The notes under the pieces were generated by a model. That model made no database searches, was not told where the DNA came from, and saw nothing but the letters and a program-made list of their open reading frames with translations. Of a stretch of 64,000 nucleotides of DNA, positions 9,469 through 15,431 are shown piece after piece (position 1 is the first letter of the stretch; every line of letters starts with the position of its first letter). The DNA is from Planctomycetota bacterium. Lineage in GTDB: Bacteria; Planctomycetota; PLA2; JAEUHO01. The stretch covers positions 320,001-384,000 of the forward strand of contig CBDCTJ010000001.1 of NCBI GenBank assembly GCA_965222115.1. The letters run 5' to 3'. The translations under genes were made by a program, and so were the position numbers.

Positions 9469-11478
9469 CTAACGGAGGGAGTTGAGCGCGGATTGCGTTA
9501 GGGCACGAATGTAGGGATCACTGGATCTCACATTCTTCTCGAGTACCTGCATTGCTGCCGCCGGACGCTCCTTCAGTGGCTTGAGCACATTGGCCAATGC
9601 GATGGCAGCGTAGCCGCGCCCCTGAAACGACGAGTCGCCCAGAAGTTTCACCAATGGTTCGATGGCGGGTCGTCCAAGCGCCTGCAGCCGGGCGACGATG
9701 CGATTGTTGGTAATGCGGTGGGCATTGCCATCTCGCAGACGCTTTGCAAGAGCGGCGGGATCGTCGCCCTCCCACGGGACGTCAGTGCCGGCGCGCTTGA
9801 TTGCCTTCGCTTCTTCCGCCGTGACGGCGTCTCGCGCGTCGGATAGGCCCTTCCAGGTGAGTCCCGAGGCGCGCAACCCCGAGCTGGACAACCCCCGAAC
9901 GTAATCGCTCTTGTGCTGGAGCCCGCGTACGAGTGCCATCTTCGCAGCGAGTGGGTGACTCTTTGTGGCCCCCATGACTTTACCCAAGGCGTATGTTGCG
10001 TACCCACGGCCGAGGTAATTCTCGTCGTTCAAAACCTTGAGCAGTGCGTGAAGTGCAGGTGCGCCTGTCTTTACGAGTTTCTCGACGAGCACATTGTTGT
10101 TGGACACATGTCGATTGCCGTCGCGCAGTTGTTGAGCGAGTACGACGGCATCATGGGGCGGATCATTGCTGGGCGCGCCGCGATCGGGACTTTCCCTGTC
10201 TCCCGAAGACTGGGGTCCGGACGACGTTGGGCCCGCCGCGCCACCGTTCGGTGCCGAATTCGGCGCATTAATCTTCCATTCCTTCTGGTCATAACGTGGG
10301 CGAAGCTTCCTGTAGATCATGCACGACGTGTTGTGCTCCTGCTCAATGTGATGCGTTCCAATGTTGCCCTCGTACTCCGATCCCCCGAGTTCCGGATTGG
10401 GATAGGGCATCGTTTCGTGAACCGCAGCAATCTTCGCGCGCATGGCGAGGCGACTCTGCCGCCGTTCGTGCCAGATCCACATCCAGTGAAAACGCGCCCA
10501 GTCGCGTTCGCCCGCAAACCACGAGGCCACGCCCAAGGAAAAGTGAATGTCGGTCGCTCGTGGATTCGCGTCGTGACGATGGACAACACTGCGACCCAAC
10601 GCTATTGCTGCCTTGTGCTTCTTCTGATGTACCAACAAATACAAAGATTCCGCATCGAGGTCTGCCGCGAGGATGCTGCGAATCGCCTCATCACCTTCGC
10701 GAACTCGCTTGATTGAATTACCGAGCGCTTCCCATTGCTCAGTTGCGCGCTGCATTCGCATGCGTGCCCGAGCGATCTCCGCGCGTTCATTCACACGTGT
10801 GTCTTTCCCAATCGCATTCAGCGTTGCCATCGCGTCGTCATAAGACGCGAGTCGTTCATACAAGCGCGCCAGCACAAGCCTTTCCGCGACGGACGCACCT
10901 TCCGCCATGCCTCGCTTCTTGACTCGCTCTTCCTCTTGGGTCCACGCCGCGAATTTAACGTGTTTCCTCAGAAGTGAAGCCAGCCACTCGCGTGCTTGGT
11001 TTTTGTCTGCATAGATGGCGGACTCATCCAAGTACGTACCATCGGGCGCAAATGCCGCCAAGTAGGCATAGGGGTTCTTGGTCTTGTCTTTGGTGAACGC
11101 GCTTGCTTCTGCGTTTCCACCCCGTCCGTTGCCACTACGATTGAAGTAGTACGGCACAAATCGGCTGTTGACGAGATGGATGAACGGCAAATCGGCGAAG
11201 GCACCTGCCCTCTGGGGTTCGGCACCCGGTCACCACATGCCGTCGGTTGCGCACTTGGCACCGGCATCGTCGATGCCAAAGGAAACGCCTTTGATGAGCA
11301 AGATTCGGTTCTTTGACTTTGCTTCCTTGAGCGCATCGGAAAACTGATGAGGCAGTTTCCACTGAATAGCCGCGCGATCCCGTGCCCAGCCCGGATGCGC
11401 CTCCTTGGCGTCTACGGGGCTCGAGGACCAGATGAATATCGAAATGCAGGTCGCAGATATCCAACCGAACGAACGCAT
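9469..11478 (-). CDS. Exported selenoprotein candidate: SelN-like thioredoxin fold, TPR region and duplicated HEAT-like domain, Sec at codon 83
   Basis: ORFs 11230..11493 and 9469..11190 are in the same frame, separated by one TGA (11232-11230) and 13 sense codons: GIDDAGAKCATDGMW-U-PGAEPQRAGAFADLPFIHLVNSRFVPYY. GGAGG SD before ATG 11478; signal peptide. Confidence 0.8.
11200..11226 (-). promoter_or_regulatory. Candidate bacterial SECIS hairpin
   Basis: mRNA GGUGCC-GAA-CCC-CAGA-GGG-CA-GGUGCC begins 3 nt after the UGA; the G-containing apical loop lies about 16 nt from the UGA. Confidence 0.5.
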
Positions 11479-11606
11479 GGCTGCCTCCATCATTTTCGCT
11501 TAAGACGACACAACTCTCTACGTCATGCGTAACTTGCCAGTCATGATCGCCAAAATTATGCTGATGTGTCACGGATCAATCACCCCCACGCACCGACAGA
11601 ATCACC

Positions 11607-12398
11607 ATGGCCAACGACGAAGCCCGATCGCCCGAGAATGGACAGTACACAACGGACCGCTTCCTGAGCGCTCGCATGCGAATGCATCGCGAATACAGCA
11701 CCAATCGGTACGGTTGGTTTCGGTGGTTGCTAGACCGCCTTGCACTCACACGAGGTGATCGAATTCTTGATGTCGGGTGTGGAAACGGAACATTTTGGCG
11801 TGTCGTCGCCGATCACGTACCCGCCGACTGCACGCTTCTCATGACCGACAAGTCGCCAGGCATGATCGAACAGGCGGCGGTGGCTCTGAGTGAAACGAAT
11901 TTGGACGTACGCTTCGCCACGATGGACGCGGAGTCGCTCGACTGCGCGTCAGAGAGCCGAACGCTCGTACTGGCCAGTCACATGCTCTACCACGTGGCCA
12001 ATCGTCAACGGGCAATATCCGAGATTCGACGCGTACTGGTCGGCGGAGGAAGACTTGTTGCTGCGACCAACGGCATGCGCCACATGCAACAGCTCGACGC
12101 GATGGCCAAGCGCTTTCTCTCCCAGTTCGACCCAGGCAGCGAGGTGGAGCGCTTTTCTTTGGAGTCGGGACTGGCGCAGCTCGAGGCACACTTCGACGCG
12201 ATCGACCGATTCGATTACAAGGATGGCTTCGTCGTTCCAGACGCGGACACTGTTTTCAACTACATCATGTCCTTGCCCGACGCACAACGAGCACCGAAAG
12301 CGGAAGTGAATGCCCTTCGTGAACATCTCGATCACACGGTGGATGCCGATCACCCGATGGTGATTGACAAGGCATCAGGCGCGTTCGTTTGTATGTAG
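11607..12398 (+). CDS. Class I SAM-dependent methyltransferase
   Basis: ILDVGCGNG motif I; TDKSPGM; HMLYHV. Confidence 0.9.
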   Translation: MANDEARSPENGQYTTDRFLSARMRMHREYSTNRYGWFRWLLDRLALTRGDRILDVGCGNGTFWRVVADHVPADCTLLMTDKSPGMIEQAAVALSETNLDVRFATMDAESLDCASESRTLVLASHMLYHVANRQRAISEIRRVLVGGGRLVAATNGMRHMQQLDAMAKRFLSQFDPGSEVERFSLESGLAQLEAHFDAIDRFDYKDGFVVPDADTVFNYIMSLPDAQRAPKAEVNALREHLDHTVDADHPMVIDKASGAFVCM

Positions 12399-12476
12399 CC
12401 CATGCGCTGCGCCGCGACCCATCGACGCGCACGCGGCGACGAGTCCGAAACCGAGATCTGCTACACTCGTTCCACA

Positions 12477-13058
12477 ATGCCCCTCAACGAACACGATCCC
12501 GTCTCGCGCCTGTTGGAGCGTATGGCCGAAGGTGATGCGGCAGCGGGCCACGAACTCTATCCGCAATTGTTTCGCGAACTGCATGGTATGGCCCACCGCC
12601 TAATGCGCGGCGAGCGCCATGGCCATACGCTCCAGACAACAGCCCTTGTCAACGAAGCGTGGTTGCGGTTCAAACCCGAGGCATCCACGCCGGAGACGCG
12701 TGCTCACTTCATGTTTCTGGCGGCACGCGCCATGCGCCAAGTGCTCGTGGATCACGCGCGAAAGCGAAACGCCAAGAAACGCGATGGCGGAGAACGTCAT
12801 GCACTCTTTGACGATGTGCTTGCGCGGTGGGAAGGCGACCCCACCGAGCTGCTCACGCTGGACGCCGCGCTCGACAGACTGGGTGAACGAGACGAAGCGC
12901 TGCGTCGCTTGGTGGAGCTTCGCTACTACGCCGGTTGCACGCTAGAAGAAGCCGGCAACTTGATGGGCATGACGGTGCGGCAAGTGCACCGTCGCTGGAC
13001 ATTCGCACGTGGGTGGTTGCGTCGTGAACTCGACAAAGGGCTGCCGGATGAGCAGTGA
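12477..13058 (+). CDS. ECF sigma factor, kinase-associated type (TIGR02999/PF07638-like)
   Basis: HTLQTTALVNEAWLR, AARAMRQVLVDHAR, VELRYYAG; overlaps the downstream kinase gene. Confidence 0.92.
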   Translation: MPLNEHDPVSRLLERMAEGDAAAGHELYPQLFRELHGMAHRLMRGERHGHTLQTTALVNEAWLRFKPEASTPETRAHFMFLAARAMRQVLVDHARKRNAKKRDGGERHALFDDVLARWEGDPTELLTLDAALDRLGERDEALRRLVELRYYAGCTLEEAGNLMGMTVRQVHRRWTFARGWLRRELDKGLPDEQ

Positions 13059-15431
13059 CTGGAAACGACTCGAGTCCATCGTCGCTCGGGCGTCGGAACT
13101 TGATCCCGATTGTCGCACAGAGTTCGTTGAGGAAGAGACGCAAGGCGACGACGCGCTGCGCGACGAAGCACTCGCGATTCTCGAAGCCGGTCTCGCCAAC
13201 GATGCGTTCCTAGACCCAATCATTGAGCGTGCCGAGTTGGAGCCCGGTACCCAGGTTGGACCGTTCACAATACAACGACCGATTGCGAGCGGCGGCATGG
13301 GCGTGGTGTATGAGGCCACGCAGACTTCGCCTTCACGAGTCGTCGCGCTCAAGACCATGCGCGCCGACCTCATCTCATCGATGGCACGCGCACGATTTCA
13401 GCATGAGATTGAAGTGCTTGGCACACTCACCCATCCCGGCATCGCGGAAATTTACCAGGCGGGTGTGCACGCATCCGTTCCATGGTTTGCGATGGAGTAC
13501 ATCCCCGACGCACAGCCCTTGGTTCGTTTCTGCCGCGAGCAAAAGAAGTCCCGTGCAGAACGCGTAGCATTTGTTGCCGATGTGGCCGACGCCATTCACC
13601 ACGGTCATGTACGGGGTGTGATGCATCGCGATTTGAAACCCGACAACCTACTTGTCGGCCGCGATGGCCGTGTGCGCGTAATCGACTTTGGCGTTGCGGG
13701 TGTCACCGATCCCGATCAGCGTCTGAACACATTGCAAACCAGCACGGGGAGCATTGTGGGCACGCTGGCCTACATGAGCCCAGAACAGGCCCGCGGCGAG
13801 TCGGGCGACGCGCGTAGTGATCTCTACAGCCTCGGCGTTGTGCTCTACGAGTTGTTGACGGGAGCGCACCCCATCGCGCTGAGTGCCAAAGACTTCTTAT
13901 CGTCTGCAAGACGTATTGTTGAGGAGCCGCCAACACGACCGTCCACGCACGACAAGACCTTGCGCGGTGATCTCGACGCCATACTCATGCACGCACTTCA
14001 AAAGGACCCCGATCTCCGCTATCCGTCAGCGAACGCGTTTGCGAACGACCTCCGTGCCTATTTGGATCGCCGCCCCATTTCCGCATCGGTTCCTTCTGTC
14101 GTGGCGCGCGCCCGCTCGTTTGTTCGTCGCAATCGTATTCTCGTGGGCTCACTCGCGTCCGTGACCGCGGCCCTCCTAATTGCGACATGCGTGAGTATCG
14201 CGTTTGGTGTTCGTTCGAAACGCGCCGAGTCCAAAGCCGTATCGAGTGAGCATGCAGCGCGCGCAGAGCGAGACCGCGCCGAGGAGCTGTTGTCCCAGTC
14301 CCTCAAGCAAAATCTCGATGCCACATTCGGTGCCGTTCCTAAGATCCATAAACTTCCAGGTGGCGCCGAAACCGCGGAGCGCGTCATAAAGACCACGATT
14401 GACAATCTAGAAGCGCTGAACAAGACGTCGAACGGCGACGAGCGGGTGCAATTGGCACTTGCAGAGGCCCATGCCAAGTTGGGTGACATTCAAGGCAATC
14501 AGTACTACGCGCATCTTAGCGATGCCAGAGGCGCGGCCGCGACCTATGAGCGCTCGCTTTTCCCTGCTACGTACACTGAAGAACAAGGCTGACTCCGATT
14601 CAGAGACGATCCGTCACGCGCGATTGCTTGAGATCAGCGTGCTTCGAAAATCTACGGAACTACGCCCCGGCCCCCTTTCCGATACGGCGCGTAACCGACT
14701 AGCCACTGCGTTGACGCTCGCTTCGGCGCTGACCAAAGAACCCGAGACGGCACCTCAAGCCGAAGGGCAGCTCGCGCTCATCCAGCTTCGCTTATCGCAT
14801 GATCGACTGATGCACGACAAGTACAACGAAGCGGCTGCGCTGGCGAAGAGTGCCATCGCCATCTACGAGAAACGTCTCGCGTCGTCCAAGGATCGGACGT
14901 GGAGTGTTGAGCTGCTTGCCGGTGCACTGGGTCGACTGGGACGCGTGCAGACCCATCAAGGCGAACTCGACGACGCCACGTCGCAACATACGACCGCGCG
15001 CTATGTCTTTGATTGAATCGCTGTCGCCCGATCAACAGCAACGCCTCGACAAACGCCGTCTCAATCTCTGGATGAAACGCGGATGGCTCGCACGAAAACA
15101 AGGCGATTTCGACGACGCGCAAGATTTCATCGGCCGCGCCAAAGCGCTCGCCATCAAGCGCTGTAAGGCCGATCCCAAGAATCCCGGCCACCGAATCGGC
15201 CTCTGCACAGCGCTCAGCGAGTGGATTATCACGGCCGAACTCGAATACGGCCCTACCGACGGAGGTATGCCGCCGAACCAAGCGCGAGAGCGCGCTCGTG
15301 AGGCAGCCGACATTGTTGAATCACTAGCACCCAAGGGCTCGCGCATGATCGCCATGTTCGTAAAGCCCTTTCGCGCGTACGCGGATGGCAAGCGCAAAGC
15401 AGGCACATTGACGGGGGCCTTTGGGGGATAG
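13048..15431 (+). CDS. Hanks-type Ser/Thr kinase with TM and TPR-like C-terminus, interrupted by two apparent frameshifts
   Basis: GGMGVVY, VALK, HRDLKPDN, DFG, GTLAYMSPEQ, then a TM helix. Reading continues in ORFs 14459..15016 and 14850..15431 after shifts at T4 (14558-14561) and a CG run (about 14995-15001). Confidence 0.85.

Follow-up and report, generated by a model that had tools for sequence, protein, structure and literature searches.

A predicted exported selenoprotein of the thioredoxin fold, fused to TPR-like and HEAT repeats, in a Planctomycetota genome

We analysed a stretch of 64,000 nucleotides from the genome of a Planctomycetota bacterium (assembly GCA_965222115.1, contig CBDCTJ010000001.1, positions 320,001 to 384,000; hereafter the window), focusing on the interval 9469-11478 of the minus strand, where a long open reading frame (ORF) is interrupted by one in-frame TGA. 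The ORF starts at ATG 11478, with an alternative ATG at 11493, and runs for 82 codons up to the TGA at 11232-11230. Past this TGA the same frame remains open for 586 codons, until TAG 9471-9469. Reading the TGA as selenocysteine (Sec, or U in sequences) gives a product of 669 residues with U83, and the peptide around the junction is ...CATDGMW-U-PGAEPQRAGAF.... An earlier note on this DNA had described an ORF with a Shine-Dalgarno sequence and a signal peptide that ends in TGA and is followed by 586 further open codons, and this description was accurate to the base. The N-terminus (MRSFGWISATCISIFIWSSSPVDA) was judged by eye to resemble a signal peptide of the Sec export type. We consider it highly likely that the interval is one gene encoding an exported, predicted selenoprotein of 669 residues, laid out as follows (SECIS, selenocysteine insertion sequence; pLDDT, predicted local distance difference test).

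9469..11478, minus strand: complete gene of the predicted selenoprotein, with 669 codons, one of them the UGA for Sec83, and the stop TAG at 9471-9469
11484..11488, minus strand: Shine-Dalgarno-like GGAGG, 5 nt upstream of ATG 11478, from direct reading of the sequence
11407..11478, minus strand: predicted signal peptide, residues 1-24, with cleavage predicted after VDA (judged by eye)
10957..11361, minus strand: thioredoxin-like domain, residues ~40-174, in the order alpha0-beta1-[Sec loop]-alpha1-beta2-alpha2-beta3-beta4-alpha3
11230..11232, minus strand: in-frame TGA, the predicted selenocysteine codon (U83) of the G-M-W-U-P motif; a conserved TGA column
11197..11212, minus strand: SECIS-like hairpin, stem GAGGGC/GCCUUC of 6 bp, 17 nt past the UGA (+18 to +33)
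10288..10938, minus strand: all-helical TPR-like middle domain, residues ~181-397, from the AlphaFold2 model
10171..10263, minus strand: disordered linker rich in Pro, Ser and Gly, residues ~406-436 (pLDDT < 50 at mature residues 382-412)
9475..10155, minus strand: two HEAT-repeat modules, residues ~442-668, each starting L-R-D-G-N, with confident helices in the model

A word-indexed homologue search with the read-through protein as query returned 15 near-length homologues besides the window's own C-terminal half, and all 15 begin downstream of the Sec column. Six-frame searches of related genomes, in which stops were read through, placed TGA exactly at the Sec column in every one of the nine non-self loci that span this column. 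The sequence at these nine loci is conserved on both sides of the TGA (G-x-W-U-P-[AG]-[AG]-[ED]-x-x-R-A, with N-R-R-F further downstream) and a signal peptide opens each of the proteins, which form three subfamilies with differing C-terminal parts. An N-terminus similar to that of the window protein was present in 10 of 10 homologues examined. Across the phylum, 72 of 401 Planctomycetota genomes contained a match; the 21 top-ranking places (E <= 2.7e-27), among which is that of the window gene, have exactly one TGA apiece, and just after these rank two places that lack a TGA and carry Tyr at the column.

The same column divides the proteins held in databases. An exhaustive search of 1.84 billion representative proteins with a hidden Markov model gave 357 matches at E <= 0.001, the best 150 of which provide the fragment and column counts given here. 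Among these 150 representatives, 136 are cut at the Sec column: 95 begin just past it, from 'starts' scattered over profile positions 83 to 104, and 41 stop just before it, all of them terminating in G-x-W. The remaining 14 read through, with Cys in four (P0021, P0030, P0076, P0155), Asp in two, Gly in two, Ser in two, Tyr in one and a gap in three; the four Cys forms, together with the TGA at nine of nine loci, are the kinds of homologue that the earlier note had proposed to look for. Its expectation that standard pipelines would split the gene was also borne out, with the two halves held in the library as separate entries (P0060, 82 aa, and P0002, 562 aa). Given the conservation of the TGA column in the family, the in-frame TGA is more than chance. 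The sequence flanking the UGA is conserved and Sec/Cys pairs occur, and the family therefore displays the two classical comparative hallmarks of a selenoprotein family. The prediction that UGA 11232-11230 is a selenocysteine codon is thus strongly supported.

As a side observation, some genomes hold many TGA-containing thioredoxin-like paralogues (eight matches in G357, six in G258 and five in G329), which suggests that some Planctomycetota have large, mostly unannotated exported selenoproteomes.

The stem-loop that had been noticed after the UGA is a 6-bp hairpin at 11212-11197, 17 nt downstream, with the apical loop AGGU (11206-11203). It lies inside the coding sequence, where it encodes part of Q-R-A-G-A-F. 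In bacterial SECIS elements the apical loop lies 16-37 nt from the UGA and contains G/U; the window hairpin follows the UGA at a short distance and likewise has G/U in its apical loop. Each family member has a hairpin ~17 nt past the UGA, with an apical loop of G-G-U or G-U-G. In a position-specific test, the best perfect hairpin with its loop over +25/+26 was compared with those of 500 synonymous recodings of the same peptide. For 27 family sequences the mean z was -4.36, with values below -1 in 25 of 27 (the exceptions being L039 and L061) and below -2 in 21 of 27. The window hairpin itself (-7.7 kcal/mol) was equalled by 2.8% of its 500 recodings. A hairpin was found at the same position in 10 of 11 distant Sec-containing relatives. 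None of three homologues without TGA (Tyr, Tyr and Asp at the column; z +0.25, -0.19 and -0.79), one of them a tandem paralogue of a Sec copy, had a comparable hairpin. This control is small, with three non-Sec homologues and related sequences throughout, and the presence of the hairpin in Sec relatives together with its absence from non-Sec homologues is supportive, short of proof. Since the hairpin sequence also codes for the conserved peptide [LQM]-R-A-[GV]-x-[LF]-[SA], protein motif and recoding signal overlap.

A natural Sec/non-Sec pair was noticed at one locus (L051, G406:C104), where adjacent tandem paralogues carry either R-C-U-G-G with a hairpin (z -2.28) or R-T-D-G-G with no hairpin at that position.

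Several results weigh against the selenoprotein interpretation of the window gene. Its hairpin, with a stem of 6 bp (z -1.97), is a short one, and the surrounding region of 63 nt folds no better than dinucleotide shuffles (z +0.74). Comparison of whole-region folding (45 nt) with synonymous recodings gave a weak signal, with a mean z of -0.53. RNAalifold returned no consensus pairs on the 27-sequence alignment, as subfamilies differ by two columns in the register of the stem. An Rfam search at E <= 10 matched no SECIS family, giving two chance-level matches only. At the protein level, four of the 14 read-through homologues carry Cys and the other 10 show D, G, S, Y or a gap, and parts of the family may therefore lack redox activity. 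The family sequences are related, so that counts across them overstate independence. Finally, the functional model presented below is one that we infer from fold and architecture alone.

The missing Rfam match would also suit a rival account, in which the TGA is a true stop between two genes, one for an exported peptide of 82 residues and one for a protein of 573 residues translated from TTG 11190. This split is what gene callers produced (P0060 and P0002), and elsewhere in the genome TGA serves as a normal stop: of 1514 stop-to-stop frames with 400 or more codons, 414 (27%) end in it. Against it, the column is fixed in more than 130 representative clusters and both flanks are conserved as one thioredoxin domain, the supposed downstream starts range from profile position 83 to 104, TTG 11190 falls within helix alpha1, and the Cys homologues read straight through. 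We therefore regard two separate genes as very improbable.

The earlier note had also named the selA, selB, selC and selD genes as a check on its proposal, and most of this machinery was found. The genome assembly (4.55 Mb in 7 contigs, 90% complete) contains SelA (416 bits), the wing domain of SelB in a frame of 651 codons (53.9 bits) and a tRNA-Sec with the anticodon tca. The check gave a less clean answer for selD. The single selD match of the assembly sits within 1.2 kb of the end of contig C1 (L003, G000 contig C1:652943-655637, with selD at locus positions 1501-2259) and has its own Sec TGA in place, but it is frame-broken, with five TGA and one TAA when read in one frame, a further point on the opposing side. 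Its similarity to a relative's SelD jumps among all three frames, in segments that are 38-67% identical per frame. Independent contigs, built from the reads of two runs that contain this organism (X2 and X3), show 0-2 substitutions but 5-12 small indels (1-2 nt) per piece when set against the assembly at selD. Because the read-built contigs differ by many such indels and almost no substitutions, the breaks are ascribed to assembly error, and the evidence points to a poorly polished contig end and not to a dead gene. In searches of 12 relatives, 10 of 11 SelD matches held one TGA (L068-L071 among the places). SelD is itself a predicted selenoprotein in this order, and Sec decoding is therefore in active use in the lineage.

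The end of contig C1 looks unpolished, and further genes close to the contig ends in the assembly may be falsely broken as well.

The state of selD also bears on a second account, that the gene belongs to a genuine selenoprotein family and is silent in this organism through decay of Sec decoding, selD being a pseudogene. The six in-frame stops and alternating frames of the only selD match would fit this, in a genome that is 90% complete. The indel-rich, substitution-poor differences from the read contigs are instead typical of assembly error, the segments of selD retain 38-67% identity in each frame, SelA, SelB and tRNA-Sec are present, and the 586 codons past the UGA have stayed open. A silent gene is accordingly unlikely, and we give it a small chance. 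A third account has the UGA read as Trp, Cys or Gly, by near-cognate or suppressor read-through or a local change of code. Gly does occur at the column in two representatives (P0019, P0025), which could be explained by a caller using a code in which TGA is Gly. This account is at odds with the use of TGA as the terminator of 27% of long frames, with the presence of the Sec machinery, with a position-specific hairpin that accompanies TGA forms and is missing from non-TGA forms, and with the occurrence at the column of Cys, the usual partner of Sec; it appears extremely improbable. Taking these accounts together, the sequence evidence makes it very highly likely that the locus is a true selenoprotein gene.

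An AlphaFold2 model of the mature protein, built from a 47-row alignment (pLDDT 91.2, predicted template modelling score 0.74), comprises, from the N-terminus onwards, an alpha/beta domain, a TPR-like domain made of helices, a disordered linker and two HEAT modules. The TPR-like and HEAT regions follow the thioredoxin (Trx) domain in the model, in line with the exported Sec-thioredoxin-TPR-HEAT protein of 669 residues that had been proposed. The TPR-like domain carries the conserved motifs W-A-[KR]-F-H-W and M-P-Y-P-N-P-E-L-G-G and has a weak match to Pfam TPR_19 (E 0.0044), and the C-terminal region matches Pfam HEAT_2 under the cut-off (E 7.2e-5). Foldseek searches with the whole model returned HEAT/ARM repeat proteins only. 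For the Trx domain the closest solved folds were DsbD-gamma, DsbH and UAS-type domains, and the window protein shows the thioredoxin fold of the Thioredoxin_7/DsbD-gamma/DsbH subclass.

In a profile search of PDB sequences, U83 fell on the leading Cys of the motif in two entries, W-C-G-P-C of 2kuc (E 0.005) and C-P-Y-C of 2lst (E 0.35). Together with the model, these alignments bear out the earlier note, which had assigned Sec to the redox site of a thioredoxin fold. It is strongly supported that Sec occupies the first CxxC position of a thioredoxin fold of the DsbD-gamma/DsbH/Thioredoxin_7 type. The CxxC dithiol motif itself is absent: the window protein has U-P-G-A and the family U-P-[AG]-[AG], with no Cys at +3. 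Compared with DsbD-gamma, DsbH, Thioredoxin_7 (PF13899) and DUF255 (PF03190), the window protein thus has Sec in place of the first Cys and lacks the second, and its family has an insert of 7-17 residues between beta1 and Sec. The unusual C-x6-U spacing pointed out previously is real, with Cys at -7 in 19 of 23 fragments of the window's subfamily; in other subfamilies the loop Cys is placed elsewhere or absent, according to a by-eye reading of the 41 N-terminal fragments, which makes the spacing a subfamily trait and not part of the family core.

No Pfam or NCBIfam model reached its cut-off for the window family. For the window protein, Pfam at E <= 1 gave only HEAT and TPR matches, with neither a thioredoxin-type match nor an EF-hand. 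The closest models, which came up for a relative alone, were PF03190 (L014, 22.5 bits against a 27-bit cut-off) and the C-terminal part of NF045694, both sub-threshold. A review of May 2026 lists 119 prokaryotic selenoprotein families (PMC13188914, Table 1), among them a Sec-containing thioredoxin (PF00085), a thiol:disulfide interchange protein (PF13098) and a Trx7/PDZ protein (NF041199). No G-x-W-U-P or Trx-TPR-HEAT entry is found among these 119 families. The catalogued Trx-fold selenoproteins resemble the window family in having the UGA at the redox position, a hairpin just 3' of it within the ORF, and Cys homologues (PMC13188914). The window family differs from them in its G-x-W-U-P-x-x motif, which lacks a second Cys or Sec at +/-3, and the window protein in being exported and fused to TPR-like and HEAT repeats. 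The main texts of this review, of the BSepDB paper (PMC13326102) and of the deep-Sep paper (PMC12013277) do not contain the string 'Planctomyc'; their supplements may bear on novelty, as may S9 of PMC4807772, which holds selenoprotein candidates of two planctomycetes. Literature searches on Planctomycetota selenoproteins returned nothing relevant to the window family.

This is, then, a large Planctomycetota family that was not found in Pfam, NCBIfam or the 119-family list. It is invisible in protein databases because standard annotation cuts it in two (136 fragments against 14 read-through forms in the best 150 of 357 matches). With its recognition, the selenoproteome of a phylum that goes without mention in the three main texts cited above gains a large exported family. 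What is unusual about it is the fusion of a single-selenol W-U-P active site to repeat scaffolds.

The earlier note had called the protein SelN-like, after animal selenoprotein N (SELENON, SelN). In PMC12839072, SELENON is described as having an S-C-U-G redox motif, Arg at U+4, an EF-hand, a type II membrane anchor and an N-terminal luminal domain. Both proteins carry Sec in a thioredoxin-like domain facing an oxidising compartment, the lumen of the endoplasmic reticulum (ER) for SELENON and the predicted periplasm here. Set against that description, the window protein has W-U-P (G-M-W-U-P-G) instead of S-C-U-G, shows no EF-hand match, no type II anchor (its signal peptide looks cleavable) and no N-terminal luminal domain of the SelN type, and bears a TPR/HEAT tail that does not figure in SelN as described there (PMC12839072). 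The recoding hairpin also differs in place, lying within the ORF in the bacterial manner in the window gene and in the 3' untranslated region in SELENON, where it is a SECIS element. Arg at U+7 and N-x-x-F of the window family recur in the SELENON string quoted in the earlier note, a string that agrees with PMC12839072 in SCUG and in Arg at U+4 and is otherwise unconfirmed.

A closer approach to SelN was found among distant Planctomycetota relatives. In one group, here the SCUG group (L050:397-1998(+), L053:1417-2643(-) and L055:1-975(+)), the sequence S-C-U-G-S-G-K-x-L-R-A-G-P-L-S follows an N-terminal domain of ~250 residues, and natural Cys forms of the group exist (P0168, P0169). Alignment of the window family domain with this group by hhalign gave a probability of 97.9% (E 3.9e-13) over 111 columns, with Sec on Sec. 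The closest ESM Atlas cluster of P0169 is named 'Selenoprotein N' (98% Eukaryota; score 0.91, 196 of 256 features), a match that we treat as a lead, not as proof. The Cys form of the window family, P0021, met only clusters of the Thioredoxin_7 type and hypothetical or unnamed ones in the same Atlas. Homologue searches with L053 and with an alignment (A7) gave only unnamed or hypothetical Planctomycetota proteins and no named SelN, and a PDB sequence search with L053 had no match at E <= 10. The members of the SCUG group are candidate bacterial SelN homologues. Because this group is homologous to the window domain and its Atlas cluster is named Selenoprotein N, the term SelN-like is defensible for the superfamily; it is wrong for the window family. 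The window gene is best described as a predicted bacterial selenoprotein of the thioredoxin fold whose link to selenoprotein N is still indirect. It provides a link to selenoprotein N that can be tested, and a tractable bacterial relative could help with that protein, the biochemical mechanism of which is still poorly understood.

The UGA is probably decoded by the bacterial SelA/SelB/tRNA-Sec/SelD system, aided by the hairpin 17 nt downstream in the coding sequence. For the window protein itself, the following mechanism may be considered. The protein would be exported to the periplasm in a Sec-dependent manner. There its single selenol could attack oxidised cysteines of client proteins (disulfides or sulfenic acids), or peroxides, and the selenenylsulfide so formed could be resolved by the loop cysteine of the subfamily (C-x6-U) or by a thiol from another molecule. 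The two repeat regions, TPR-like and HEAT, might hold the client or a partner, as in Trx-TPR 'chaperedoxins', AGR2 and ERp44. The CnoX/YbbN chaperedoxins share the order of an N-terminal Trx fold followed by helical repeats, a likeness of architecture only, taken from the AlphaFold2 model. These chaperedoxins, like the monothiol AGR2/AGR3 and ERp44, use Cys and reside in the cytoplasm or the ER, and their likeness to the window protein is a functional analogy only. Modelling and analogy leave this single-selenol client chemistry a tentative proposal, with somewhat less than an even chance of being right.

The selenoprotein gene is isolated, being convergent with an ABC-F ATPase gene and divergent from a methyltransferase gene, beyond which two genes of signalling type follow (ECF, extracytoplasmic function).

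11607-12398, plus strand: methyltransferase gene, divergent from the selenoprotein gene
12402-13058, plus strand: planctomycete-type ECF sigma gene (PF07638)
13009-14592, plus strand: Ser/Thr kinase gene, after the ECF sigma gene

Elsewhere, a Ser/Thr kinase lies within 3 kb of family members at 5 of 20 places. At 10 further loci with 2.5-kb flanks, three of them shared with these 20 places, a kinase was present at three and a sigma factor at three. These kinase and ECF sigma neighbours, of kinds that are abundant in the phylum, are hints that envelope-signalling modules might control the family. Redox neighbours of family members are occasional, with no conserved operon.

Drawing these threads together, we raise a broader proposal that we hold as possible, at less than an even chance. 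Planctomycetota would have a large superfamily of exported Trx-fold selenoproteins that includes bacterial counterparts of SelN. Its SECIS hairpin would double as code for a conserved L/Q-R-A-G-x-[LF]-S, the two having co-evolved. The TPR/HEAT branch would act as a periplasmic monoselenol redox protein that binds clients, possibly under the control of the neighbouring ECF sigma factor or Ser/Thr kinase.

Minor observations concern the surroundings of family members and the assembly. An AhpC/TSA-redoxin protein (L075:4334-5749(+)) and a Thioredoxin_7 protein (L082:6688-7893(-)) lie within 3 kb of two family members. Genes of the PF00144 beta-lactamase family recur beside family members (L058, L059, L064). 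One contig of the assembly (G000 contig C6, 48,116 bp) has a G+C content of 39.7%, against 55-59% in the other six contigs, and may be foreign, mis-binned or a mobile element.

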